Made by a program: the position numbers and the translations under genes | The notes under the pieces: generated by a model | What the model saw: the letters and a program-made list of their open reading frames with translations, nothing else | What the model was told of the DNA's origin: nothing | Database searches by the model: none | Virus record (IMG/VR): IMGVR_UViG_3300038345_000144 | Strand: one strand, 5' to 3' | Length of the DNA stretch: 64,000 bases | DNA from: a virus | Lineage: Duplodnaviria; Caudoviricetes | In this document: positions 4,140 through 52,768 of the stretch, piece after piece | Position numbering within the stretch: position 1 is the first letter of the stretch | How the letters are laid out: the number at the start of each line of letters is the position of its first letter

Positions 4140-5182
4140 TTCAATAATGCGTCAGAATGTTCTCCAATATAGATTTTCTGCGGGATTTGTGCGTAGAATA
4201 GCGTATTATCCTGCATTACAGAGAGGAACCTCTTGGCATCATCAGTATTGAAGTAGCCTTGTTCTGTAAAAGTATAAACTCTATTCTTACTGTCAGCGAT
4301 GAACTTCTTGTAGAATTCATCAATCTTGTCAGCAAGGATTTGTTCATTTTCTTTAGAGAAATCAAGTTCCATATACTTCTTCTTACCGATAGGAGTAATG
4401 AGATAACCCTTTGAAATCTCTGTATTAAGTTCCTGCTCCATACCCCACTTATACAAAATCATAGAACCCAAATAACCGTCAAATGTTACATATTCAGGCT
4501 TTGGATTACCAGTCTTGTAGTCAAGGATAACTGGACCGACCTCATCACGATAGTCAATACGGTCTGCTACATAGGAAACGGCACAAGGGAGTGTATAGCC
4601 AATAGACTTGACATATAACTTCTCTCTGCCTCTATGCTCCGTTGAACATTTGAGTTTTGCGTCCTCAAGAATGTCCTTCGGGTGCAGATAGTCCTTAATA
4701 TCGTAATATCCCTTAACAAAACTCTCAAGTTTCTCTCTGTCCTGACCAGGTGCTATAACCTCGTCTAAAATCTCAAAGAGTTTGCTTCTATGTCTTTCAT
4801 CAGCAGGGAGATTATAGTAAATTTCCATAATCTTGTGGAACGCAGTACCTAAAGCGGTAGCGTCATTGACCTGCTCGGTAAAGAAATTCTGCATCAACAA
4901 AAGGGCGGGGTTAGTCATATAACCAGAGAGAAAACTCGGTGAGAAGTAATCTCCGCTAAATCTATTCAATAGAGACTGAATGGAAGAACCATAGCCCTGA
5001 TAGATAGCAACATTTCTGGTCTGATGCTTATTGTTGTACGCCTTTACGAGTTTCTGAATGAGTAATTCACAATCAGTAAAAAGTGCTGATGCGTCCAATG
5101 TCTTGTTGTTAATTTTAGCAACATAAGTTAAGAGGTAGTCTTTACCTTCTTCTGTAATAATCTGGTCTCTAATATCGCCCAT
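4136..5182 (-). CDS. PD-(D/E)XK nuclease (RecB/AddB-like)
   Basis: FSPS, LGTAFHKIME, ADRID, ILDYKTG motifs. Confidence 0.8.
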   Translation of the reverse strand: MGDIRDQIITEEGKDYLLTYVAKINNKTLDASALFTDCELLIQKLVKAYNNKHQTRNVAIYQGYGSSIQSLLNRFSGDYFSPSFLSGYMTNPALLLMQNFFTEQVNDATALGTAFHKIMEIYYNLPADERHRSKLFEILDEVIAPGQDREKLESFVKGYYDIKDYLHPKDILEDAKLKCSTEHRGREKLYVKSIGYTLPCAVSYVADRIDYRDEVGPVILDYKTGNPKPEYVTFDGYLGSMILYKWGMEQELNTEISKGYLITPIGKKKYMELDFSKENEQILADKIDEFYKKFIADSKNRVYTFTEQGYFNTDDAKRFLSVMQDNTLFYAQIPQKIYIGEHSDALLK

Positions 5183-5517
5183 TAAGAAAACACCCTTTCT
5201 ATAATCTGTTCGTCAGGTTCAAAAATAAAATCTGACTCTATTTCGGCATTATTACTATCATACTGGGTTTCAAACCATTTGTAAAGGGCAACAATGTCGT
5301 GGTTTGTAAGCAATCTGTTAGGTGTGAGTAAGACTTTACCGTACTTATTCTGTCTGTTTATCAGCCAAGTTATACGGTTAATCTTGAACTCCTTAAACTC
5401 CTTATTGAGTCTCTTTCTTGTCACCTCATCGTGAATTTCGTGGTTATTGAGTTTGTCCTCGGCAGTAGCCTTTTCACGCTCATTACCTACATACTTAAAT
5501 TCTGCTACATAAATCAT
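5182..5517 (-). CDS. Hypothetical protein coupled to RNAP genes
   Basis: Start and stop overlap with both neighbours. Confidence 0.6.
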   Translation of the reverse strand: MIYVAEFKYVGNEREKATAEDKLNNHEIHDEVTRKRLNKEFKEFKINRITWLINRQNKYGKVLLTPNRLLTNHDIVALYKWFETQYDSNNAEIESDFIFEPDEQIIERVFS

Positions 5518-6515
5518 ACTTTCTTCGCTCCCTTGTATCTGTCGGTGGCAATCTCGGTCTTAACAGAGTTAGCCTCAAATGTTCCTGCTACAAGCAACTT
5601 CTCGAAAGACTGCTGTGTAGGTTTATAGATAAACGCTCCAAACTTATCACCCTGCTGGAGGAAAGATGTCTGTAAAGCGGCGAACTTACCGTTTCTCCAT
5701 CTTGAGAGTAAGGCAACTTCGTAAAATCTTGACTCAACTCCTACATTACCAATCTGGTCGATAATTTCCTGTATCTTTTCCTTTGCTTCAGCGATATTCT
5801 TAATCTTCGGTATCTTCTGCTCAAGCAATACATTGATACGCTCGGAGGTTCCCTTGTTCATAGCATCCAAAGCACCCTGCGTAGCGTACTCTGTAATCAT
5901 ATAAGTAGCCCATTCGCCAATGTTGATAGGTACGAAGGTAGAGTCCCATTCTCTTCTGTAAAGACCAGCACACTTCGCACAGAAATGTCTGATACCGTGA
6001 GTACAAGTAAGGAAGTTACGAATGTGGATAGTACCACGCTTCGGAAGTTCGGAGTAGTCCTCAACATAACGGTCCAACTCCATAACCCAGTGGTTCCTTA
6101 TCTTGTAGTTGAAAGTATCTTCATCAACTGGCATCTTGAACTCAACGCCTTCGCTCTTGCAGTCGGCAATATCAATGCTCATACCGTCACAAGAACTTGC
6201 CAGTTTTTTCCAGAAGTAACCAGAAGCCGTAATATCCGTAACATTAGCGGAAATTACCTGCTTCATAAACTTATTTGACTCTTCCTCGGAGTAATTGTCA
6301 GTTCTTCTGTTAACAGAGTTGGCAATATCTTTTGTGTTACCAGTAAACTCGGTGATGTTCTCAATTTTCTTCATAGAAGTCTTGTTCTTCTCACCAAAAG
6401 CCTTTGCAAAGTCGCCTACATTCGGGATGTAGCACTTGGTAAACATAGCCATTCTGTCTGCATTGTACTGTTCTAAATACTCGTCACGACTTACTCTTTT
6501 AAGTTTTTTAGCCAT
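5514..6515 (-). CDS. rpoC: RNA polymerase beta-prime-like subunit, C-terminal part
   Basis: TASGYFWKKL ~ bridge helix TAxSGYLTRRL; IRNFLTC...CAKCAG ~ Zn site; NIGEWATYMITEYATQ ~ trigger helix AVGxxAAQSIGEPGTQ. Confidence 0.8.
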   Translation of the reverse strand: MAKKLKRVSRDEYLEQYNADRMAMFTKCYIPNVGDFAKAFGEKNKTSMKKIENITEFTGNTKDIANSVNRRTDNYSEEESNKFMKQVISANVTDITASGYFWKKLASSCDGMSIDIADCKSEGVEFKMPVDEDTFNYKIRNHWVMELDRYVEDYSELPKRGTIHIRNFLTCTHGIRHFCAKCAGLYRREWDSTFVPINIGEWATYMITEYATQGALDAMNKGTSERINVLLEQKIPKIKNIAEAKEKIQEIIDQIGNVGVESRFYEVALLSRWRNGKFAALQTSFLQQGDKFGAFIYKPTQQSFEKLLVAGTFEANSVKTEIATDRYKGAKKV

Positions 6516-6984
6516 TCTTTTTATCCTCTATCTTTGCGGTGGTTTCGTCTGTTTTATCTGCAATACATACAAGCACAGTGTCGTCTGCCAAATAAAGCGT
6601 TAACTCATTACCGTCGATAACCATACTCGCATTATCGCTGTTGTTATCGAATACAATGATATACTCTACGGCAGTCTCACTCTGGGGCTTTTCACCTTCC
6701 TCAAGTTGTCTCTTTTCGTAAGTACCGTGTTCCTGCGACACTACTTCTCCGTCAACCTTAATGCCAATGTCAATGTCCTTCTTTCCTAACTGGACGATTA
6801 CTTCAGCATTTTGAGCAAGATTTGTTCGATAAATAGTCTTGGTGGGTTTCAAGAGCAAGATAGTGGCAAATATGATAATACCGATAACCAATATAGCAAA
6901 GAATACTACATTGGAGTTAATCGGAGGCATATTACCCTTCTTGGCGGGCTTTTTCTTTGTCTCGGTCTTTTTCTCTTCAGCCAT
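6508..6984 (-). CDS. Membrane-anchored hypothetical protein
   Basis: Single N-terminal TM segment; sits between the RNAP beta-prime halves. Confidence 0.65.
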   Translation of the reverse strand: MAEEKKTETKKKPAKKGNMPPINSNVVFFAILVIGIIIFATILLLKPTKTIYRTNLAQNAEVIVQLGKKDIDIGIKVDGEVVSQEHGTYEKRQLEEGEKPQSETAVEYIIVFDNNSDNASMVIDGNELTLYLADDTVLVCIADKTDETTAKIEDKKNG

Positions 6985-6987
6985 AGA

Positions 6988-8292
6988 TTACTCCTTTGTT
7001 GCCATCATTTGGGCTGTTATTATCCATTCTACATACTCAAACTCTTCGAGCAATCTGTTACGGATGCTGGAGTTTGAACCCTCGATATAGTTATGACTCG
7101 GTAACAACTTCTCTGCTTCCTTACAAGCCTTCTTTGTGTAAAGAGCAATAACATTAAGCGTGTCACCGTCAACATCTGCGGCGAGTCCGTCATAGATGAT
7201 AGGATTTGTCTGGATAACATACTTCTCGTCATCATCAGCAGAGAAATATGGTATCATTCCCATAATGGACTTTGCACCAATTGTAGGTTGGCGGTTCAAA
7301 AGAACATAATAATGTCCATCTTCCAAAATCTTGTTAACCTTATCAATGTCGGTCTTACCTGTTGTCTTATCCGTACAATCAGCGTAAATCTTCGGATAAA
7401 GTGTCTTAATGAACCAACTACCAATGACAATCTTATCTTCAGGCAAACGGCAGTTATTTGTCATAACGGCTCTAATCATACCTGTCTGGGGCTGTCCCCT
7501 CAACTCATTGGCGATGATGTTTCTCTTGTTCTTGGCAAGTATCTGGAACAAAGACTTATACAACTTCTCAAGGGTTGCACAAGTGACATATCTGATGTTC
7601 AACTCGTTAATCTTTGTCAGTCTGCTGTTTACAGAGAACTTATCATACTTGAGTTTCTGTCTGATAATCTTGATATATAACTGGTTCAACTGTCCGAGGA
7701 ACCTCTTACCATTCTGGAAAGTAATCTTTCTGAATGATGTGTGAGGGATAGCGATGAGCCTGTGAGTGTTTCTCTCATACCACTTACGGATGTCCTCCGA
7801 GTCCTCGATATAGAACAGAGCGTCCTTACCGTAGAGAATACGGTCTTCCTCGTAGATGGACATATCCTTCTTGAGGTCAAACTCAACAATCTGGTCTTCT
7901 TCGTCTCCCTTTCCCTTATAGATAAACCACTTATAGTATAAGAGGTTATACATCATATCCATTGTTGCTTTGTCGAAATCAAATTCGTCATCGCAGTTCC
8001 AGTCAAAGACCCAGTTAGGGAGGTCAAAGCCAAACTTTACATAGAAGTTAGGCATCCTTCTCTTATCAAGAACACGGCAACCACAGGCTTCACAGATACC
8101 AGGTCTGGTCAAAAGACCGCACTTACAGTGTCCAAACTTACCGAATATTTTTTCGGAGAAGATACCTTCCTCGTCAAAAAGATATTCACCAGTTACGCTG
8201 TCCTTAATCTTACGAGCCTGAAAAACCTTATCTGAAGTAACTTCATTCATAGGGTTTTCTTTAATCTTAATCGGCTTCACTGTTATCTTCAT
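6988..8292 (-). CDS. rpoC: RNA polymerase beta-prime-like subunit, N-terminal/catalytic part
   Basis: GIFSEKIFG, CKCG..CEACG Zn finger, LNRQPTI, catalytic AADVDGD (cf. NADFDGD). Confidence 0.9.
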   Translation of the reverse strand: MKITVKPIKIKENPMNEVTSDKVFQARKIKDSVTGEYLFDEEGIFSEKIFGKFGHCKCGLLTRPGICEACGCRVLDKRRMPNFYVKFGFDLPNWVFDWNCDDEFDFDKATMDMMYNLLYYKWFIYKGKGDEEDQIVEFDLKKDMSIYEEDRILYGKDALFYIEDSEDIRKWYERNTHRLIAIPHTSFRKITFQNGKRFLGQLNQLYIKIIRQKLKYDKFSVNSRLTKINELNIRYVTCATLEKLYKSLFQILAKNKRNIIANELRGQPQTGMIRAVMTNNCRLPEDKIVIGSWFIKTLYPKIYADCTDKTTGKTDIDKVNKILEDGHYYVLLNRQPTIGAKSIMGMIPYFSADDDEKYVIQTNPIIYDGLAADVDGDTLNVIALYTKKACKEAEKLLPSHNYIEGSNSSIRNRLLEEFEYVEWIITAQMMATKE

Positions 8293-10546
8293 TCGAGTCC
8301 TCTTCCTTTCCCATAATAGAGTTAATTTGCTGTAAATCCCTCTCGTCCAAACCCTTATAGTCTACGACATTGTTCTCAATGGAGATACTGTAACCCATTG
8401 ACTTAACAACCTCAATAAAGTTAAGGGAAAGTCTTGTATTTTCTGGAAGTTCTCTGGTTTCCTGCATATCAGCAATCATTCTGTGGGAGCCAATATACTT
8501 TGTAACACTTCTGATACCCAACTCCTTGAGGATATTAGGGCAATCGTTTGCTACAAGGTTCATCTTCTCCATTTCACCGAACTTCAGTGTTCTGCCGTAT
8601 GCGGAGTCTGCCGATGACTCGGAGATATGGGTTGCGGCGTGGTGGTACAGTCTCATAATATAGTTGAGACCAACAGGTACGGTCTGCTTCTGTCCCTTAT
8701 ACTCCAATACAGAGTTCTTGGCATATTCCTTCATCTGGTCAGCATAACGCTCAATCATAATAGCAATAAAGTCTTCGTTTTCACCGTATTCAATATTGCT
8801 TGCCAATGCCCAAGCCTCAAAAATCTGACCAAGTGAACCTCTACGCATTGTAGAGAAACCTGAAATAACAATTTCCATAGGTCCTGCCTTCATATCGCCT
8901 ACATCGTGCAAGAGACGAGGCATCTGGTCGTCAGGAAGGATAAGTCCTACTGTACCCTTCGCACCGTGGAGGTTGGTAATCTTATCACCAAGTCTGAACG
9001 GGATTTCCCAAGACAGGAATACACGGATATTGTTCTTATCTACCTCATCAAATCTGTCAATCTTGAAGTTCTCATAGTTTGAAAGCACAGCGTCACTCTT
9101 GTTAGGGAATAACTGCTTAAGAGCCTCTAAATTAAAGTCCTGCTTGGCAATAAGAGCAAAGTCCTTTGAATTCTTATTTAAGTATAAAATTGTCTTGTCA
9201 AAAGTTCTTAACCTTTCGGCAAATGACTTTGAAATAATCATTGAGTCGGCGGCAGTATATCCCTCAATGTCGCAAAAACAAACCCTTGCCTTAATTCTGT
9301 GTGTAAGAGGGTCAATTTCCTCTGCTAACGGAACTGCCTGTGATGTCATTTTAGCGTTCATCATAATACGCTTCGGCTTATCGTTGTTACCAAACGGAGC
9401 CTTTGACAAACAAGAAAGACGGGCTTTCTGCGGGTCGGTGAAATACTCGTACATATTCTTCTGTACGCCGTTCTCATCTACAATCCACAACATTCCCTTC
9501 TTCGTTACAACATTATCAAGCAACAATCTCTGACGACCTGCTGACTGTGATGTTACAGTCTTGAATGAGTCAAAGAAACCGTTAGTGTCTGTGTAAGTAA
9601 ACGCAGGCTTGAATTTGGTCTTCTTATCATCATCACCATTATGGTCGTAATGATTGCTTGGAGCGTTGTCGTTACCATTGTAAATATTTACGCAAGTTCT
9701 GAAGTTTTCAAGTGCAAAAATAAGGCTTTCGCTACGAACAAGGCAACCTTCGAGGTTCTCGCCTGATGTCGTGTACTGCTTTGCCTTTGAAGCAATAATA
9801 GTGTTGATACCCAAGAGTATCTTCTTTGTAGGTTGAGCAAACTTCTTGGAGTTAAGGATAATATCCTCAAAGTATTCCATTCTGGAGAACTTATAATTGA
9901 AGATACTGTCGCTCCTGAACTTTGGAACCTGTCTCAAAGCCTCTGTAAAGTTATCCAGTGTGAGAGGCTCCTTGATAATAGACATCAACAAGCACTTGGA
10001 CCTGAAAGTGAGGTTATTGAATACCTCTTCTTTTGTAGGCTCAAACTGGTTTTTAGGGTCTTTGTAAGTACATTCAAAGGTGTCAGAAGGAATATCATAC
10101 TTCCAACCGTTATCACCTCTGATGGTCTGGAAATCCCAACGAGCCAAAGCCCCGTAGAAGTCCTTAACGGCTGTCACACGGGTTACATAGTGGGTTCTGT
10201 TGATAATCCAGCAAAGGTCAATACAGGGCAACGGCATCGCCCCTAATTTGAGACGCTTGCCGTTGTAATCACCTGAAATATCGACACACATAGAGTGAAA
10301 ATTTAACTTCAACTGATATGAGTTCTTTGTCTGTTTAGACGCATCATAGTTAAGTACGCCGTTGTTAAAATATCTGGCTAACTTACAGGGTGAGTCCGTA
10401 TTCCAATACTTCTCGCAATCCCTGTCGATGCTTGCCTGAATATCAGCAAAGTTGTCATTTTCATCAATAGGAGTTAGCCCCAAAAAAGACTGATTTGCAA
10501 CAGTCCAAAAGGCTAACTCTTTGGCATAAAGTTCCGTAATTGTCAT
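8267..10546 (-). CDS. rpoB: RNA polymerase beta-like subunit
   Basis: RIMMNAKMTSQAVP, EGYTAADSMIIS, GDKITNLHGAKG, MRLYHH, KFGEMEK correspond to conserved RpoB blocks. Confidence 0.9.
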   Translation of the reverse strand: MTITELYAKELAFWTVANQSFLGLTPIDENDNFADIQASIDRDCEKYWNTDSPCKLARYFNNGVLNYDASKQTKNSYQLKLNFHSMCVDISGDYNGKRLKLGAMPLPCIDLCWIINRTHYVTRVTAVKDFYGALARWDFQTIRGDNGWKYDIPSDTFECTYKDPKNQFEPTKEEVFNNLTFRSKCLLMSIIKEPLTLDNFTEALRQVPKFRSDSIFNYKFSRMEYFEDIILNSKKFAQPTKKILLGINTIIASKAKQYTTSGENLEGCLVRSESLIFALENFRTCVNIYNGNDNAPSNHYDHNGDDDKKTKFKPAFTYTDTNGFFDSFKTVTSQSAGRQRLLLDNVVTKKGMLWIVDENGVQKNMYEYFTDPQKARLSCLSKAPFGNNDKPKRIMMNAKMTSQAVPLAEEIDPLTHRIKARVCFCDIEGYTAADSMIISKSFAERLRTFDKTILYLNKNSKDFALIAKQDFNLEALKQLFPNKSDAVLSNYENFKIDRFDEVDKNNIRVFLSWEIPFRLGDKITNLHGAKGTVGLILPDDQMPRLLHDVGDMKAGPMEIVISGFSTMRRGSLGQIFEAWALASNIEYGENEDFIAIMIERYADQMKEYAKNSVLEYKGQKQTVPVGLNYIMRLYHHAATHISESSADSAYGRTLKFGEMEKMNLVANDCPNILKELGIRSVTKYIGSHRMIADMQETRELPENTRLSLNFIEVVKSMGYSISIENNVVDYKGLDERDLQQINSIMGKEEDSNEDNSEAD

Positions 10547-10574: not shown

Positions 10575-10949
10575 TTAGTTGTCTTTTACTCTACCATTCT
10601 CATCGAAGTAGTGTTCAGCAGTATCAGGAGTGTCCTTGATATGTGCATCAGGGTTGTCAATGCGTTCACCCTCTTCAGATACCGCATCGGTTTCATCAAT
10701 ATAGTGGTCGTCGATAATAACCCCGTCTTCTCCATCGTGACCAGGCTTATCCTCATCGTAATGGCTATCACGGTCTGGAGTGTCTTTCGCATCGTCAGTT
10801 GACTCTTCTGCTACTTCCTTTTCCTCTGTTTCCTCGATAACGGTTGTAGTTTCCTCTGGGTCGTTGGTCTTCTTTGTACCGCCACACGCTGTCATTGTCA
10901 ACAGCATTGAACCTACAAGTGCCATTACCATAATCTTCGACTTTTTCAT
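10575..10949 (-). CDS. Acidic lipoprotein
   Basis: Signal peptide with lipobox MTAC; D/E/H-rich; internal KDTPD repeat. Confidence 0.75.
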   Translation of the reverse strand: MKKSKIMVMALVGSMLLTMTACGGTKKTNDPEETTTVIEETEEKEVAEESTDDAKDTPDRDSHYDEDKPGHDGEDGVIIDDHYIDETDAVSEEGERIDNPDAHIKDTPDTAEHYFDENGRVKDN

Positions 10950-10985
10950 TTTCCTAAATTTCCTTCCTAAAATTAAAATTATATT

Positions 10986-11213
10986 TTATTTATTCTTGGC
11001 TATTATAATAATGAACACCAAGAAATAAATAAGCAACAGTAATAATACTAATGCAAAAGTAATCCAAATTGGCGAGAGTACCCAAACCCAAGACCAGTCG
11101 ATTACCTTGCATAATTTTAAGACAATAAAGGCAATAGTCAATAGGGTAGAAAAACTACCACCTACTGTAACGGAGACTTTTGCTCCTCCACCGTTATTGT
11201 CATCATTTCCCAT
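10986..11213 (-). CDS. Small membrane protein
   Basis: AFIVLKLCKVIDWSWVWVLSPIW, a motif common in small phage membrane proteins. Confidence 0.7.
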   Translation of the reverse strand: MGNDDNNGGGAKVSVTVGGSFSTLLTIAFIVLKLCKVIDWSWVWVLSPIWITFALVLLLLLIYFLVFIIIIAKNK

Positions 11214-11240: not shown

Positions 11241-11999
11241 TACAGGCAGTGTTGTTTGTTTTTAAGTTTATTTTTGTTTATTTTTGATTAGTGGAATTTA
11301 GAATGTATCTTCATCTTCCGCAGTAACCTCAACAGGACCGTCTTCCTCAAGAGAGATTACTGTGCCTTCGCTTGGAGCATCTTCTAATTCTTCCTCTGTG
11401 TTCTTGCCTGCTTCTCTTTCAGCAATAGACTCCTTAACGAGTTTATTGGTGAGAGATACAAGATATGCCTGAATGTGTCTATCGACCATAATCATAGCAC
11501 TTCTGAACTTTGCAGGCTCTACGGGTACACCAATCATAACTTCAGGCTTACCATCAGGTATAATTGCACCAGTGTCAGTTGTCTTACCCTTACCGAGTGA
11601 GAGATTAACGAACAACTTATCACCTGCCATTGTTAACTTGATGGTACGGCTTTCAATGTGGTTGTCATATCTCTTGGACTTTGTGCTACCACCACGGCTG
11701 ATAATGTAACCCTTCTCGCCAGCCTTCATAACCTTCTCAAAAATTCTTCCCGACCTACAATCTTCTGCAAGTGTGACAGCCTCTTCGAACTCAAGATAGC
11801 AACTAACAGAACGCTGTGCCATCGGGAGCGACTTGTCATACTTTGCCGCCTGAAGTCTTACCTTCTCGATACCGAAACTATCGAGATACACATTCAGAAC
11901 GACTGTTTTTGTAGATGATTTGGAGATTTTGTACTTGTCAAACTGATTGTTTCTATTCATTTAATTAAATTCCTTTCGCATAATAGAACACTGCCTGTA
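11241..11999. repeat. 13-bp perfect inverted repeat pair flanking the 11298-11960 gene
   Basis: TACAGGCAGTGTT at 11241-11253 and AACACTGCCTGTA at 11987-11999. Confidence 0.85.
11298..11960 (-). CDS. Hypothetical protein with acidic tail (possible ssDNA-binding protein)
   Basis: Beta-rich basic core and acidic C-terminus ending EDEDTF; function inferred only. Confidence 0.45.
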   Translation of the reverse strand: MNRNNQFDKYKISKSSTKTVVLNVYLDSFGIEKVRLQAAKYDKSLPMAQRSVSCYLEFEEAVTLAEDCRSGRIFEKVMKAGEKGYIISRGGSTKSKRYDNHIESRTIKLTMAGDKLFVNLSLGKGKTTDTGAIIPDGKPEVMIGVPVEPAKFRSAMIMVDRHIQAYLVSLTNKLVKESIAEREAGKNTEEELEDAPSEGTVISLEEDGPVEVTAEDEDTF

Positions 12000-12026: not shown

Positions 12027-12055
12027 ATTATAACAATATTATTTTTCTTTGTAAA
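12027..12055 (-). promoter_or_regulatory. sigmaA-type promoter
   Basis: TTTACA-N17-TATAAT. Confidence 0.75.
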
Positions 12056-17138: not shown

Positions 17139-17564
17139 TTAGTGATTTTCGAGATAATTCATCACCTTGAAGAGTGACTTCTGTTCAATCTGACGCACTC
17201 TTTCAAAGGACATATCATAGATTTCTGCAAGGTCTCTGAAAGTATAGCACTTATCGGCATTTATACCTCTTCTCTTATACAGAATATCCTTTTCCTGCTC
17301 CGTGCATACAATATCAATAGCCTTAATAATGTCCTCGGCGGTGATTTCTCGTCTTGCGTGAAGCCTCTTATAAAGGCAAATGCTCTGGAAAATAATACCT
17401 GCAATACCAAGACCTACGGCAATAAGCGTATAAAGTCTGATTGTAGGGAATATGATTGATGCTCCTACGAAAAGGAGTGTAGCAATACTGCCTGCTACCA
17501 GTGAAATAATGTCCTTTCTGACTAATTCCTTATTAGGCTTTCTGTTAATTGTAATGTTTCTCAT
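17139..17564 (-). CDS. Two-TM protein with C-terminal sigma70 region-4 domain
   Basis: Two hydrophobic helices, then EQEKDILYKRRGI...TFRDLAEIYDMSFERVRQIEQKSLFKV (cf. RpoD VTRERIRQIEAKALRKL). Confidence 0.75.
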   Translation of the reverse strand: MRNITINRKPNKELVRKDIISLVAGSIATLLFVGASIIFPTIRLYTLIAVGLGIAGIIFQSICLYKRLHARREITAEDIIKAIDIVCTEQEKDILYKRRGINADKCYTFRDLAEIYDMSFERVRQIEQKSLFKVMNYLENH

Positions 17565-19087: not shown

Positions 19088-20161
19088 TTATATACTTGCC
19101 AGATTTACATTCCTGTAAGACATATCATCTGTTACCTCTTTAATGACCTTAATCTCATCTGGTATAGAGATTTTAGCGTCCTCGGAGGACATTTCAATCT
19201 CAAGAATTGCCACATCATTCCAGTTAGGATAAATGTCTATCTCTAAATAACAATCCATATATGACATACAGTAGCGTGTCTTTCTTATCTGGTGCTTTGA
19301 GGTGTCTGCGTTCATCAACAGGGCTAAATACTCGTCCTTTGTCAACATACGCTCAATCTCCATACGCTTGATGTCCGATACCCTACGCTTGATGGTCTTT
19401 GTGTAAACATAGTTACCGTTAAGTCCTCTTTGTCTAACTCTGACCTCATCTTCGGGGTTATCGCTGTTCAAATATGTCTGGATAATATCTACCTTCTGAA
19501 CATTAGGCAGGCTCTCCAGCCACGCAACATCAGGGTACTCAATCAAGAATTTACGCTCAATCTCGTAAGGCTCTGGCTCACCTAAATAAGATGTGATTTC
19601 CGTCATAAGTCGCTTAATCTTCTCATCAAAACCTGTTGAGTTGTCGATAATTCTGAAGTGCGGGTGTCCTGTCCAAGCCTGCATAACCTTTGTATCGTTA
19701 TCCCTTGCCTGTTCAGGAGTTTCCCATCTTGCCTGATTATTTTCTGTGGTATAGAACTCTTCTGCACCCTTCGCCGCAGTTACGAGGTGGAATACTGCAC
19801 CGTAGTTATCACGGAGTTCAACCTCATTTGTGCCAAGAGTATGTAAAACTCTGTTCCACATTTCTTCGTCCATATAAGCCTTGTTATCCAAAACTCCTCT
19901 GTCGCAGATGATAATAGCCTTCTGGTCAAGAGTTTTAGAGGCTTCCTCATAGATACGCTCCTTATCTAACTGGTATTTTGTCAGATAAGTCTGGAATTCC
20001 TTAAAATCTACTGGGGTTAATCCGCTTGAGATAAGTTCGGTGGCAGACTCGGCAATAATAAGTACCTTATAACCAAGTTGTGTCAATTCCTTACTAATCC
20101 TGCTCATAGCGGTTGATTTACCAGCACAAGGACCGCCAGTTATTACGATTTTTTCAACCAT
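19088..20161 (-). CDS. AAA_28 P-loop kinase-like domain fused to CYTH domain
   Basis: GGPCAGKS Walker A, CDRG; EIERKFL CYTH motif. Confidence 0.85.
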   Translation of the reverse strand: MVEKIVITGGPCAGKSTAMSRISKELTQLGYKVLIIAESATELISSGLTPVDFKEFQTYLTKYQLDKERIYEEASKTLDQKAIIICDRGVLDNKAYMDEEMWNRVLHTLGTNEVELRDNYGAVFHLVTAAKGAEEFYTTENNQARWETPEQARDNDTKVMQAWTGHPHFRIIDNSTGFDEKIKRLMTEITSYLGEPEPYEIERKFLIEYPDVAWLESLPNVQKVDIIQTYLNSDNPEDEVRVRQRGLNGNYVYTKTIKRRVSDIKRMEIERMLTKDEYLALLMNADTSKHQIRKTRYCMSYMDCYLEIDIYPNWNDVAILEIEMSSEDAKISIPDEIKVIKEVTDDMSYRNVNLASI

Positions 20162-43732: not shown

Positions 43733-46135
43733 TTATGGGACAATAGTAGTGAGCCAACGGAGACCATCTTCCGTAAGAACAACGCCGTCACGCAACAGGT
43801 CTTGCCTATCGTAGAAGTTAATATCCTCGATAAGTTTATGCTCGAACTTTTTAAGCGGAGCCATAATAGCGTCATCTTTATATTCAGATATAGTAACAAC
43901 ACACTTCTGCATAACTTCCTTTATCTTACTAAAGTTGTGTTCAATGTCTGCGATGTTTGCCATATCGACAATAGCGATAGATACCGTAGGATAGGTCTCA
44001 AACCTTGTTACCGCCAGACTGCCTCCGAACTTATCATAGTCCTTTTCAAACATATTATCGTCCGTAGGCTTCTTAATCAGACAGTTACCTGCCATTAAGT
44101 CCTTATGCAAGTTCTTGGTCAAATCAAGGCTTGAATAAACGGTATCAATCAGTCCTCGAATATCTTTGACATTGTTAATTGTCTTTTTATTCTTCAAAAC
44201 CGCTACGGTACGGGCAAGGATTTCCCTGCTGTAAATAGAAACACCGAAACGGTCTCTTGGAATAATAACAGTGATTGGTGTTGTGATGTGTTCTTTCTCT
44301 CTGACTGTATCTTTGTCGGGGTGTCGCCAAACTCTACCAAATCTCTGAATAAGGAGGTCAATAGGGGCAATAGCCGTGAACATTCTATCCAAGTCAATAT
44401 CCAACGACTGCTCGATAATTGAGGTAGCCGTAAGTGTGAGCCTCGGAGGTCTTTCTGTTCTGTCCTTACCCAGAATATCAATGATGTCTTTGGTCTTTTT
44501 CTCTTTATGCTCTACGGTATCACGACCATTGAACATCATTACATTAGGCAAGCCAATCTTCTTTGCCTCGTCATAAAGTCTCCAAGTCTTATCAACCGTA
44601 CTCTCGATATAAGCCGTACAACCGTTATAGTTAGTTGCCATAAACTTATTCCAAGTCTCTTCGTAGTCATCTGTTTCGATAACATCAATATTGAAGGTAC
44701 GCTCATCACAGGAAACCTCGGTAAATGCCATACCATTAGCCACACTGTATGTGGTAATAAGAGGATATGCGTCATTCTTTACAAACTGGTCTCTGGTGCA
44801 ACCACTGGCTTCAAGTAACTCTCTCTTGGTTACTGAAGGGAGTGTAGCGGAGAGCAGGATAACAGGAATATCGAGGAACCTGCACCACTGTATAAGCATC
44901 TTAATCTCGGCAATCATATATGAGTCATAGGCGTGAACCTCGTCAATTACGATTACCTTATCAGACAAACCAATAAGTCCAATGCAGGAATATTTCTGGT
45001 AAAGCACGGTCTTGAGGATTTGGTCAACCGTACCTACTGCATAAGGATATAACAAGTGATGTTTTGTCTTATGAGTCCACAAATATTGAGGTATCTTTGT
45101 CATATCGGCATCTGTCCAGATTTCACTACTGTCCAATTCTGGAATATTCATTCCCAGACCGATTTTCTGTGCTACCTTATTCATACGGAGGGACATACCC
45201 TTTGCCGTAGCCATTGTAGGAGTAGCAAGGTAAATACCAGATTTGTTAGCACCAATCTGCTTGGCGGCTACCAGAGAGGCTTCCGTCTTACCACCACCGC
45301 AAGGGTACTCTACAATCATAAGTGAAGGATTAGACTTTGAGGCTTCAATAATCTTCTCCTGCAACTCATTCTTTTCAAAGTCAAAAGCCATATCCCAAGT
45401 AACATTCTTGAGACGGTCTTTCATAGGTACATATCCCAACGCATTATTCTGTATGAAGTTTTTAGCCCATACTCTACGGTCCAGCGAGTTAGTAGGCATT
45501 TTTTGCCAGTTCTCGCCAGATGCAATCCAGTCGGCTGTTACCATAATTGACAGGATAGAATACCAAACTCCGTTATGGAATTTATCAAGGTCAGCAAACC
45601 TGTCGCTGAAACTCCACTCGTTCTCAATTTCCTTAATTAAGGCAAATCCTACCTCTCTCCATTCGGGAGATACCTTATATGAGAAACCGCCCTCTGATTT
45701 AGACTGGTGGTGATATGCCAGTATGTCGGCAAATCGTTCAGCCTCAAATGAGAAGTCCTTTTCCTCAAAATAATCTTTAAGTATTTCTCTTGAGAACCTT
45801 TCGTGTCTAAAGCCGTCATAGTCTCCGTCTTTTGCAATACCACGCTTCTTGAAGTCTTCCCAAAGTTTATCAAGTTCAGGGTTCTCTTGGCATTTAGGGT
45901 ACATCTTACCCATAAAGAACGGATGAGCCTTACCTAAATCGTGGCAGGCACACAAGAACGAAATAGAACTAACTACCTCTGGGAAAGGTAATTTAACCTT
46001 ATCAGCGATAGAATGAGCCATATTAAACGCCCTACCATATTTCATTAGGGTCTCTGCAATACAGCCAACATCAAGCAAGTGATTTAGCAACTTCAAATCT
46101 GGCTTTGCATATAATTCGTCTAATTCTACTATCAT
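43733..46135 (-). CDS. cas3: CRISPR-associated HD nuclease-helicase Cas3
   Basis: HLLDV, HDLGKA, RHE, YHH, ADWIAS; GGGKTEA, DEVH, LSATLP, EQSLDID, QRFGRVWRH; ATG 46135 preferred over GTG 46177. Confidence 0.95.
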   Translation of the reverse strand: MIVELDELYAKPDLKLLNHLLDVGCIAETLMKYGRAFNMAHSIADKVKLPFPEVVSSISFLCACHDLGKAHPFFMGKMYPKCQENPELDKLWEDFKKRGIAKDGDYDGFRHERFSREILKDYFEEKDFSFEAERFADILAYHHQSKSEGGFSYKVSPEWREVGFALIKEIENEWSFSDRFADLDKFHNGVWYSILSIMVTADWIASGENWQKMPTNSLDRRVWAKNFIQNNALGYVPMKDRLKNVTWDMAFDFEKNELQEKIIEASKSNPSLMIVEYPCGGGKTEASLVAAKQIGANKSGIYLATPTMATAKGMSLRMNKVAQKIGLGMNIPELDSSEIWTDADMTKIPQYLWTHKTKHHLLYPYAVGTVDQILKTVLYQKYSCIGLIGLSDKVIVIDEVHAYDSYMIAEIKMLIQWCRFLDIPVILLSATLPSVTKRELLEASGCTRDQFVKNDAYPLITTYSVANGMAFTEVSCDERTFNIDVIETDDYEETWNKFMATNYNGCTAYIESTVDKTWRLYDEAKKIGLPNVMMFNGRDTVEHKEKKTKDIIDILGKDRTERPPRLTLTATSIIEQSLDIDLDRMFTAIAPIDLLIQRFGRVWRHPDKDTVREKEHITTPITVIIPRDRFGVSIYSREILARTVAVLKNKKTINNVKDIRGLIDTVYSSLDLTKNLHKDLMAGNCLIKKPTDDNMFEKDYDKFGGSLAVTRFETYPTVSIAIVDMANIADIEHNFSKIKEVMQKCVVTISEYKDDAIMAPLKKFEHKLIEDINFYDRQDLLRDGVVLTEDGLRWLTTIVP

Positions 46136-46136
46136 T

Positions 46137-46190
46137 TGTTTATACCCCGTAATACAAGGAAAGAAAGCGTCCCCCACCGAAGCGGGGAGT
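46137..46190 (-). repeat. Two abutting CRISPR-repeat-like hairpins in the cas6e-cas3 intergenic region
   Basis: CCCCGC-TTCG-GTGGGG-GACGCTTT then CTTT-CCTTGT-ATT-ACGGGG-TATAAACA, 1 nt before the cas3 ATG. Confidence 0.6.
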
Positions 46191-50854: not shown

Positions 50855-52768
50855 TTACTTTCTCAAGTTACAACAGTCGTCAGGATTAGGGTTAAACTGG
50901 GTGTTCCAGAACTCGTAAGCCTCGTCTTCATCTTCGCATACGGAGATTTCCTTAAAGCCCTTAATATTCTGGATTAACTCCTTCTTCTTTGCTAATGGAA
51001 GATGGTTATAACCACCGTGCTTAACCGTGTATGGAGTGAAGTCAATATCAAACCACTTCTTAATCCAAGTGTTGACTCTCAAGAACTCAACGATAATCTT
51101 ATCACACTTAATCTTTGCCAACTTATCGTAGTCAACAAATTCAGGAATAAACGGAGAAAGTCTTACCTGAACATCAAAACCACGCTCATAGAGTCTCTCT
51201 ACTGCCCAAATTCTTCTGCTCGGTAACGGTGCTTTCTCGTAGTCCAACTTCTTATAGAGGTCATCATCAAAACAAGTAATAGTTACCTGAATATGTGCAA
51301 GTTCGGGGTCAAGAATATCGAGATACTCGTCCCTACCAATAATATCACCCTTTGTAACAATGAGGTAAGGCTGACGCTTCTCGTTTAGAGCCTTGATTAT
51401 TTCATAAGTAACTCTCTTTTCCAACTCTAACGGCTGGAAGGGGTCGGTCATACCGCCAAGTCTGATAGCGGGCATACCTGCGGGAAGTTTAGCAATCTTT
51501 CGCTTTGCCTGCTCGATATTAGTAATTGCAGGGTCCTTCGGGTTCCACAACTTTCTAAAATCAAGTAATGACTTTGCATAGCAATTATGAGAAATTACAC
51601 CATTAGCCACAAAATTACGAGTTGTTGTAGTTATGTCTACCAAAGGTTGGGTATCTTTTAACTTTTTGATACTAACAATTTTTAAGTCGCCAGCATTAAA
51701 AGTCTTGAGGGCAATATTAGCAATTTCGCCTTCTCGATTACACTTGACACATTTAACGATATTGTTAAATCTGATGCTTTCGGATAAGCCTCCTACTAAT
51801 CTTACCGTTTTGCACACACTATTTTTAGTCTTTGCTTCTTTATCAAAGGTATATGCAAATTCAAATGCAGTTAAAGCGTCCGTATATTCTTTAATTAGTT
51901 TGTCATCCGTATTATAAACTCTACGAATTAAAATATTAGAACTACCTTCGGCATCATATAAGCCCGCCAAAAAACCTCTTCTAAATTCACGGGTCTTTTT
52001 AGTATCTATGAGGTCATTGATTTCATCAAAGTTTTCTTTTGACGAAGTTCTTATTGCCATTACCGTATAGTGTTCTTTAGTGCTACGGTCAATCATCGGG
52101 AATTCAAACCAAGCAGGCTCAACCCCAAACCAAACTAAATAATCAAACACTCTATCCGTAATTGCTTCGTCTTTCAAAGCAAGTCTAAAATGATATTGAT
52201 TATCAGTATGTCTATAAGGTCTTTCTGGATAGTTATATTCCTGTAAGTTAGCGTCACCTAAAATAACACCTCTCAAGTAGCCCTTTTTGTAGTCGTCGGT
52301 CTCTTCAAAGAAAGGAACATCAAATAAAGTAGCAAATCCCATTAACTGATTATTTTCGGTAATATAAGGTCTTCTATTCTCCCCTGTCATTTCACCAGTT
52401 GTGTACTTCCAACCTCTATCAGTAAGCCACTGGTGGTCAGCAGAACAAATAAGTGTATTGCCGTTTGAGAGTTTAATCTTATATGCCTCTTTTGCCACTA
52501 TGTTTTTATTTGTTACAATGGATTTTGTAAACTTTTTATAAGTATTGCCATCGCCTTCAACAATACCATATATTTCATCACCCACCTCTATATCACCAAT
52601 AGTCTTAATAGACCCGTCATACATCAAAATTTGGGTGTCCATTGAAAGACAATAGGAACAATCGTGTTGGCATCCGCAACCGTAACTATCTAATCGTGTA
52701 GGATAATGACACTTACTACCCTCGTTGCCCTTAACTTCCTTGTAAAAACTCTTAAACTCTTTACCCAT
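50855..52768 (-). CDS. Radical SAM protein (spore photoproduct lyase-like family), intein-containing
   Basis: CQHDCSY|C motif, RLGGMTDPF, YLIVTK, VQVRLSPFIP. Confidence 0.85.
   Translation of the reverse strand: MGKEFKSFYKEVKGNEGSKCHYPTRLDSYGCGCQHDCSYCLSMDTQILMYDGSIKTIGDIEVGDEIYGIVEGDGNTYKKFTKSIVTNKNIVAKEAYKIKLSNGNTLICSADHQWLTDRGWKYTTGEMTGENRRPYITENNQLMGFATLFDVPFFEETDDYKKGYLRGVILGDANLQEYNYPERPYRHTDNQYHFRLALKDEAITDRVFDYLVWFGVEPAWFEFPMIDRSTKEHYTVMAIRTSSKENFDEINDLIDTKKTREFRRGFLAGLYDAEGSSNILIRRVYNTDDKLIKEYTDALTAFEFAYTFDKEAKTKNSVCKTVRLVGGLSESIRFNNIVKCVKCNREGEIANIALKTFNAGDLKIVSIKKLKDTQPLVDITTTTRNFVANGVISHNCYAKSLLDFRKLWNPKDPAITNIEQAKRKIAKLPAGMPAIRLGGMTDPFQPLELEKRVTYEIIKALNEKRQPYLIVTKGDIIGRDEYLDILDPELAHIQVTITCFDDDLYKKLDYEKAPLPSRRIWAVERLYERGFDVQVRLSPFIPEFVDYDKLAKIKCDKIIVEFLRVNTWIKKWFDIDFTPYTVKHGGYNHLPLAKKKELIQNIKGFKEISVCEDEDEAYEFWNTQFNPNPDDCCNLRK
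51584..52651 (-). mobile_element. Intein with LAGLIDADG homing endonuclease (356 aa)
   Basis: Starts CLSMDT, block B SADH, GYLRGVILGDA and GFLAGLYDAEG, ends NGVISHN followed by +1 Cys. Confidence 0.95.

Follow-up and report, generated by a model that had tools for sequence, protein, structure and literature searches.

Multisubunit RNA polymerases are known from jumbo phages, where the AR9/PBS2/LPJP1-type enzymes (PDB 7S00, 7UM1) and that of phiKZ (7OGP) are beta/beta′ cores that lack alpha and omega subunits. These enzymes have been reported as impossible to place phylogenetically (PMC7598289), and reviews of large phages describe a division in which polymerase-encoding jumbo phages are without sigma factors and sigma-encoding ones are without a polymerase (PMC7824862, PMC7598289, PMC13282480). 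Here we describe a locus within a 64,000-nucleotide stretch of viral DNA (IMG/VR record IMGVR_UViG_3300038345_000144; hereafter the window), which derives from a giant DNA element of ~0.4 Mb from the cattle rumen that is filed as a huge phage. Three genes of this locus probably encode the catalytic part of a DNA-dependent RNA polymerase that belongs to the element itself, a compact two-barrel enzyme that would likewise assemble without alpha or omega. The enzyme is most likely a working core and represents a real, conserved and uncharacterised lineage of compact multisubunit RNA polymerase.

Three genes of one operon carry the modules of beta and beta′

The polymerase operon comprises five tightly packed, overlapping open reading frames (ORFs) at positions 5182–10546 of the window, all on the minus strand, as are all other window features given below. 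At its upstream end lies an unsplit beta-like subunit (8267–10546, 759 amino acids), which contains the second catalytic barrel and matches Pfam Rpb2_6 (E 1.2e-9). It is followed by the N-terminal part of beta′ (beta′N; 6988–8292, 434 amino acids), which contains the catalytic barrel and matches Pfam Rpb1_2 (E 1.1e-7), by an ORF of 158 amino acids with one membrane helix (6508–6984), by the C-terminal part of beta′ (beta′C; 5514–6515, 333 amino acids), which holds the bridge helix and trigger loop and was recognised by profile and fold, and by an ORF of 111 amino acids (5182–5517) that stands outside the conserved set. The polymerase genes have intact, overlapping and translationally coupled frames, the start of beta′N overlapping the stop of beta by 26 nt. 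An earlier sequence-only reading had described a three-piece polymerase of 759, 434 and 333 amino acids, about 1500 in all. The ORFs and their lengths bear this out, with a sum of 1,526 amino acids as compared to 2,749 in E. coli beta and beta′ (55%), but the membrane ORF between the two beta′ genes had been overlooked. The same reading had put forward the 111-amino-acid ORF as a partner of the polymerase. This suggestion was not upheld, as none of 14 related loci (L001–L006, L022–L029) carries a counterpart of the ORF, and the Pfam matches of the ORF are sub-threshold only.

Profile and fold comparisons support the assignment of each chain. A PHROGs search matched "RNA polymerase beta subunit" families, and a beta family profile searched against PDB matched E. 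coli beta (7e-19) and AR9 beta-C (1.2e-17), with Thermus and B. subtilis scoring equally and phiKZ much more weakly at 1.4e-7. By hhalign only the C-terminal third of beta was aligned with E. coli beta, the match extending to the C-terminal end. The AlphaFold2 (AF2) model of beta (predicted local distance difference test (pLDDT) 83, predicted template modelling score (pTM) 0.79) could be superposed over residues 1–643 on E. coli beta 23–1245 and B. subtilis beta 25–1050 (VIA Z ~22, 500–550 residues). Similarly, beta′N was aligned by hhalign with E. coli beta′ 52–491 (E 1.3e-12) and with beta′N of Listeria phage LPJP1 (E 5.9e-15, 27% identity in the aligned part). It carries a zinc ribbon of the form CxC..CxxC (8068–8142) and keeps the clamp coiled-coil, which aligns with E. 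coli 264–309 by hhalign.

For beta′C, neither Pfam nor a single-sequence search of PDB returned any match. A profile built from 24 beta′C relatives (A1) aligned with bacterial beta′ (788–971; E 1.3e-4), the aligned part starting at the bridge helix, taking in the second zinc cluster and reaching into the trigger loop. The AF2 model (pLDDT 77) gave Foldseek matches to beta′ chains (1.7e-5), among them E. coli beta′, phiKZ 7OGP_D and AR9 7UM1_D/7S00_D. This model was superposed on Mycobacterium (Mtb) beta′ 690–1257 and Thermus beta′ 908–1471 (VIA Z 15.7, root-mean-square deviation 6.5, 309 residues). In the window the bridge helix is at 6186–6266 and the second zinc cluster at 5961–6167, and beta′C also carries the C-terminal clamp-closing regions. 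Together the folded models cover cellular beta and beta′ over almost their full length. Given the fold alignments of beta and beta′C, the three proteins, with 1,526 residues between them, therefore span all beta/beta′ modules in their usual order. The metal triad, both lysines of beta, bridge helix and trigger loop are all present, and the enzyme belongs to the beta/beta′ class of two-barrel polymerases.

A metagenomic family with no alpha or omega in four complete relatives

Among 1.84 billion protein clusters (50% identity), beta had 39 family representatives at E ≤ 1e-30, the next polymerases appearing only at 1e-13; beta lengths within the family are 679–783 amino acids. At 90% identity the family comprises 112 clusters of beta′C and 166 of beta′N, on contigs of up to 512 kb. 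Full-length loci in IMG/VR number 14, on contigs of 117–467 kb, and 14 related loci show the same order of genes at 48–68% identity. The family is known from metagenomes only, where its sole label is "hypothetical protein" in "Bacilli bacterium" bins. Near-identical beta-C-like proteins of 535 amino acids were also noted in Thermodesulfobacteriaceae and Aenigmatarchaeota bins (L016/L017), which points to a mobile element or virus that was binned with unrelated genomes. The polymerase stretch itself is present in cattle and sheep gut sequencing runs from 11 studies, and elements of this family are widespread in the gut of these animals. No description of the family was found in full-text literature searches or in the main text of Al-Shayeb et al. 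2020.

The completeness of the enzyme could be judged in four complete relatives (G001–G004), which have direct terminal repeats, are 290–467 kb long and show 60–68% identity. Each has a single beta and a single beta′N, as determined with both Pfam and the family's own profile. Searches of these four relatives for alpha (PF01000, PF01193) gave no match at E ≤ 10, with controls positive in 14/14 genomes, and omega (PF01192) was likewise without a match in them. The absence of alpha, which the sequence-only reading had noted for the window, thus holds in the complete relatives, where it was checked. Unsplit beta′ proteins of 770 and 797 amino acids occur in two rare relatives (P0388/P0389), in which the N- and C-terminal parts are joined by ~30–38 residues and the catalytic loops read AGDCDGD and AGDTDGD. 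Because such unsplit proteins exist with a short linker only, no core segment is lacking, and the reduction is confined to peripheral domains and the flap. The flap measures ~85 residues between the ED-equivalent and GDK, as compared to ~250 in E. coli.

The sequence-only reading had suggested that this may be a distinct reduced lineage, a view that near-identity to a characterised phage polymerase, or missing segments encoded elsewhere as further subunits, would have contradicted. Neither was found: no DNA match was obtained in 50,697 phage records, the best protein matches were 24–44% identical over 11–42% of the query, and the single beta and beta′N of the complete relatives, the full-span models and the short linker of the unsplit beta′ proteins argue against additional segments. 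It is thus fair to call this a distinct reduced lineage.

The number of chains varies within the family. One member, P0121 (1,091 amino acids), has beta fused to beta′N, and the interval between the two beta′ genes is occupied in different ways. The position of the 158-amino-acid membrane ORF is kept in L001–L006, at ~30–36% identity. In other members the gap is filled by an RRXRR-HNH endonuclease gene, by a zinc-finger/nuclease-like gene, or by a group of genes with an AAA_5 ATPase among them (as seen at L027:14136–15578 and L024:13360–18728, with RRXRR-HNH endonuclease, zinc-finger/nuclease-like genes and AAA_5 ATPases). In three loci beta′C is not within 10 kb, and where beta′ is unsplit the membrane ORF is absent. 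Because the gaps of other members hold unrelated genes, the membrane ORF is probably a clade-specific insert rather than a universal subunit. The varied gap contents show that the split site of beta′ behaves as an insertion hot spot, which fits the published proposal that splits of such polymerases arose through mobile elements (PMC7598289).

Altered catalytic motifs are fixed across the family

Three departures from the cellular active site had been claimed for this locus, and all three were verified at their coordinates. In beta′N the catalytic loop reads AADVDGD (7162–7182) in place of NADFDGD. In beta′C the short trigger loop EYATQGALDAMNKG (5850–5891) has asparagine in place of the TFH histidine. 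In beta, AD (9245–9250) stands in place of ED. The remaining catalytic elements of beta are recognisable as GDKITNLHGAKG (8954–8989), which corresponds to GDK..HG.KG with its two catalytic lysines, and as KRIMM..QAVP (9329–9412). In the profile alignment N220 of beta′C falls at the position of the bacterial TFH histidine, and L-D-A-M-N is aligned opposite bacterial M-R-T-F-H. The trigger-loop arginine and histidine are therefore D and N here. In E. coli numbering the changes are N458A, F460V and E813A/G and, in the trigger loop, R933D and H936N. The asparagine of NADFDGD contacts the ribose of the incoming nucleoside triphosphate in the bacterial enzyme.

These replacements are not peculiar to the window. 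GLAADVDGD was found in 118/121 beta′N relatives, and virtually every one of 113 beta′C relatives has the trigger loop ITE[HY]ATQ..LD.MN[KN]G. In beta, A or G precedes a conserved D ([AG]D), and the lysine block reads GDK..HG[AS]KG. Invariant in the family are D373, D375, G376 and D377 of beta′N, which include the aspartate triad, and G520, D521, K522, H527, K530 and G531 of beta, together with KR.MM...Q.VP. Across more than 100 sequence clusters, with identities as low as 27–40%, the deviant motifs do not vary. Because the replacements are fixed across the family, the altered motifs are, as judged from sequence conservation, a selected state and not decay. The family thus offers a natural experiment, in which the loop asparagine, the beta glutamate of ED and the trigger-loop histidine, near-universal elsewhere, have been dispensed with and their replacements fixed.

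The same residues bear on whether the genes might be an inactive remnant of captured bacterial rpoBC genes. Canonical residues have been lost and ~45% of the length is missing, as such a remnant would suggest, but the frames are intact, the same deviant motifs recur unchanged throughout those clusters, the models are confident, and the triad and lysines are kept. We consider an inactive remnant extremely improbable.

Genomic neighbourhood, promoter and expression

In every locus the operon is surrounded by a replication/recombination block with DnaB, DnaG, two PD-(D/E)XK nucleases and what may be a single-strand DNA-binding protein. DnaB and DnaG lie upstream of the operon, and a PD-(D/E)XK exonuclease follows beta′C; a further flanking gene is PD-(D/E)XK/NERD-like, as read from motifs in alignment A4. 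This setting raises the alternative that the enzyme serves mainly in replication, by making origin transcripts or primers, possibly with relaxed sugar selectivity. The location inside the block in every locus and the replacement of the NADFDGD asparagine in all members would agree with such a role. On the other hand, phage polymerase genes are often found among early or replication genes, and a DnaG primase is already present, so that we regard a primarily replicative enzyme as very unlikely, and continue to read the three genes as the core of a transcribing polymerase.

The most consistent neighbour is a conserved protein of 175–220 amino acids (11298–11960; 220 amino acids here), which is encoded upstream of beta in 15/15 family loci and directly so in most. 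In this window two small ORFs separate its gene from beta. The protein had no PDB, Pfam or PHROG match, and its nearest named ESM Atlas cluster, a Whirly-domain cluster (0.89), is a lead only. It is possibly a single-strand DNA-binding protein, and is also a candidate partner of the polymerase. Other candidates for an extra subunit, namely the PD-(D/E)XK/NERD-like protein, the PD-(D/E)XK exonuclease and the flanking membrane proteins, were rejected. The two small ORFs between the 220-amino-acid gene and beta (10575–11213) are a lipoprotein-like ORF of 124 amino acids, with a signal peptide ending LTMTAC, and a membrane ORF of 75 amino acids; they were seen only here and are absent from the 14 related loci.

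A candidate sigma-A-type promoter, TTTACA-17-TGTTATAAT (12027–12055; score 11/12, extended −10), sits in the intergenic gap upstream of the 220-amino-acid gene and probably marks where the transcription unit begins. It is to be taken as a lead only, because the promoter scan of the window was overall not enriched over shuffles (40 found, 37.6 expected). A further motif, TAAATAGYC, occurs 6 times as compared to 1.7 expected, a count that was reached by 2/100 shuffles. In a bovine metatranscriptome, five small contigs map to beta, beta′C and the upstream gene, and carry no strand or start information.

Several points weigh against the assignment of a working core. The metatranscriptome support is weak, as it consists of contigs only and DNA carry-over is possible. 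The absence of a second polymerase set, of alpha and of omega was seen only in relatives at 60–68% identity, and assembly without alpha is proposed by analogy with AR9 and phiKZ (PMC7598289). Three residues that handle the substrate in cellular enzymes are changed, and the core might therefore be less active or act differently. RNA synthesis by the three-chain core is predicted from sequence and models.

Sigma genes and the nature of the element

The host enzyme would first transcribe the operon from the sigma-A-type promoter, since a strong promoter of this type upstream suggests that the host holoenzyme starts expression. The core would then transcribe genes of the element, in the manner of jumbo-phage non-virion polymerases. 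Host-directed control probably does not affect the core, which is also expected to be insensitive to rifampicin. Its promoter specificity may come from the element's own RpoD-like sigma factors or from an unrecognised subunit.

The first of these sources has some basis in the complete relatives, each of which has 2–4 sigma-70 genes (region 2 E 1e-14 to 1e-24) that match a Firmicutes RpoD model nearly end to end (E 1e-50 to 1e-82). One tentative proposal, which is compatible with the core assignment and a more specific version of it, is that the core and these RpoD-like factors make up a self-contained, sigma-dependent, non-cellular holoenzyme. The presence of 2–4 near-full-length genes in all four complete relatives agrees with it, as do the retained clamp coiled-coil of beta′N and a short amphipathic helix, FNLEALKQLFP (9092–9148), which is kept in beta at the tip of the reduced flap. 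Against it, the flap is cut to about a third of its length in E. coli, and E. coli beta′ R275, which we take to be a sigma-contact residue, aligns with Q in beta′N. Moreover, huge phages without a polymerase commonly carry sigma factors, whose presumed role is to redirect the polymerase of the host (PMC7824862, PMC7598289), and the co-occurrence of sigma and core therefore proves nothing. In having both polymerase and sigma genes the family breaks the published either/or division of large phages.

In the window we also observed a membrane-tethered protein of 141 amino acids with sigma-70 region 4 only (17139–17564; Pfam 4.7e-7), which could interact with the flap tip of the host or the element polymerase. 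Three further genes of the window are of a different kind: an 814-amino-acid Cas3 with HD domain, DEAD helicase and Cas3 C-terminal domain (43733–46177), a radical SAM protein interrupted by a LAGLIDADG intein (50855–52768; Pfam Intein_splicing, LAGLIDADG_3, Radical_SAM), and an AAA_28 kinase-like NTPase fused to a CYTH (triphosphate tunnel) domain (19088–20161).

The element that carries the polymerase was considered through seven relatives (G001–G007), the IMG/VR contigs behind L001–L004, L027, L029 and L024, which IMG/VR files as viruses. None of the seven gave a Pfam match to TerL_ATPase, TerL_nuclease, Phage_portal, Phage_capsid, Phage_sheath_1 or GPW_gp25, and Terminase_6N was without a match in the four relatives that were searched for it. 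Gp23 was also without a match in the seven, although its positive control was itself silent. These empty searches do not prove a non-phage nature, because divergent structural genes escape Pfam models. VirD4 and the MobA relaxase were equally without a match in the seven relatives, while a protein with a TcpF/VirB4-like ATPase domain and several FtsK/SpoIIIE proteins were found in 7/7. The label "huge phage" may need checking. A bolder possibility, which we hold to be rather unlikely, is that core and sigma factors together form a complete holoenzyme, the first sigma-70-dependent multisubunit RNA polymerase outside cells, and that it perhaps resides on a giant conjugative plasmid-like element.

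Comparison with known polymerases

Of the cultured phages, LPJP1 provides the best match for beta′N, its own beta′N being 437 amino acids long as compared to 434 here. In both, beta′ is cut after the catalytic barrel at the same site within ~5 residues, the alignment stopping 19 and 24 residues short of the respective C-terminal ends. The catalytic loop is followed in the family and in LPJP1 by DGDxLN[IV]IAL, where bacteria have DGDQMAVHVPL, and with the loop GGDYDGD LPJP1 has lost the loop asparagine too. An alignment of the N-terminal zinc ribbon of beta′N was obtained with the bacterial protein and not with that of LPJP1. The LPJP1 gene annotated as gamma was tried as a counterpart of beta′C and rejected, as it has no match to it. 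The family further differs from the AR9/phiKZ type in that beta is one chain of 759 amino acids and not split into two, in that each complete relative has one enzyme set rather than a virion and non-virion pair, in that the complete relatives carry RpoD-like sigma genes, and in that beta′ is unsplit in some members.

These likenesses and differences bear on a second proposal for promoter recognition, which is doubtful to a similar degree as the self-contained sigma holoenzyme: that the core works in the manner of AR9 and phiKZ, the type with a fifth, non-sigma specificity subunit (gp226/gp68), with an unrecognised non-sigma subunit directing it to unusual late promoters while the sigma factors serve the host enzyme early. 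The split site and DGDxLN[IV]IAL shared with LPJP1, the LPJP1 loop without asparagine, the absence of alpha and omega, and the fact that AR9 beta-C matches the family profile as well as bacterial beta does all point in this direction. However, beta is a single chain, no second (virion) set occurs in the complete relatives, LPJP1 gamma does not match beta′C, and the sole conserved uncharacterised gene of the operon, that of the 175–220-amino-acid protein, is more like one for a DNA-binding replication protein.

When compared to the bacterial core (E. coli, Thermus, Mycobacterium, Firmicutes), the enzyme shows the same module order along its whole length. Common to both are the N-terminal zinc ribbon, the second zinc cluster, the bridge helix, the trigger helices, KR..M..Q.VP, GDK..HG.KG and the C-terminal beta clamp. 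In contrast to the bacterial core, there is no alpha or omega in the relatives, AADVDGD replaces NADFDGD, A/G-D replaces ED and LD.MNKG replaces MRTFH, the flap has ~85 residues, and beta′ is usually split.

Similarities are also found among polymerases from metagenomes and other phages. Like the polymerases of mReC (multisubunit-RNAP-encoding Caudovirales), those of this family are metagenomic, deep-branching beta/beta′ proteins on large viral contigs, some of them host-associated. The mReC screen (Weinheimer and Aylward 2020), the only published search of metagenomes for multisubunit polymerases of phages, required beta/beta′ matches of at least 800 amino acids and NADxDGD (PMC7481178), and would exclude the family because the lengths of 759, 434 and 333 amino acids and the AADVDGD loop fail all three of its filters. 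Fused beta–beta′ phage proteins of ~1,250–1,500 amino acids are the nearest non-family matches for beta among the 1.84 billion representatives (E 1e-13 to 1e-8). For example, gp206 of Salmonella phage Arash (1,525 amino acids, annotated as RNA polymerase beta) holds both barrels and adjoins the portal gene (L094:1819–6396). The Arash-type proteins share with the family a short spacing between the beta barrel halves and 40% identity in the GDK block, but they have beta and beta′N in one chain, and gp206 lies in a structural gene block. Fused proteins of ~1,250 amino acids from metagenomes, which gp206 represents, form a large set and are the family's nearest outgroup. The fused relative P0168 had no match in IMG/VR.

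Other reduced, alpha-independent two-barrel enzymes on selfish elements, namely pGKL2 Rpo (ORF6 and ORF7), YonO, crAss-like gp66 and the P23-45 polymerases, were compared by description (PMC7824862, PMC10770324). Unlike these minimal enzymes as described, which are smaller or single-chain and have shed the majority of the beta/beta′ modules, the enzyme here keeps the full module order, both zinc clusters, the bridge helix and the trigger helices. In contrast to YonO and crAss gp66, single-chain enzymes described as having no flap insert, its two barrels are on separate chains, with P0121 fusing beta to beta′N.

The significance of the family lies in this combination: a complete cellular beta/beta′ module order in 55% of the E. 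coli length, on three chains (two in rare members), without alpha or omega. With so few residues and chains, the enzyme is an appealing minimal model for studies of the structure and mechanism of multisubunit polymerases. The family also raises two questions: can sigma-dependent initiation occur outside cells, and does this lineage form a bridge between the bacterial and the AR9-type enzymes? With regard to the latter, identity to beta in the GDK block is 40% for Arash, 29% for E. coli and 28% for LPJP1, and these block identities and the hhalign scores do not agree on a single nearest relative. Alignment by hmmalign of bacterial, archaeal, AR9-type, phiKZ-type and fused references to the family beta model left ~97 alignable columns, which made the tree unreliable. 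We conclude that the family is best placed as a separate deep lineage of the bacterial-type branch, which shares its beta′ split with the AR9-type enzymes.

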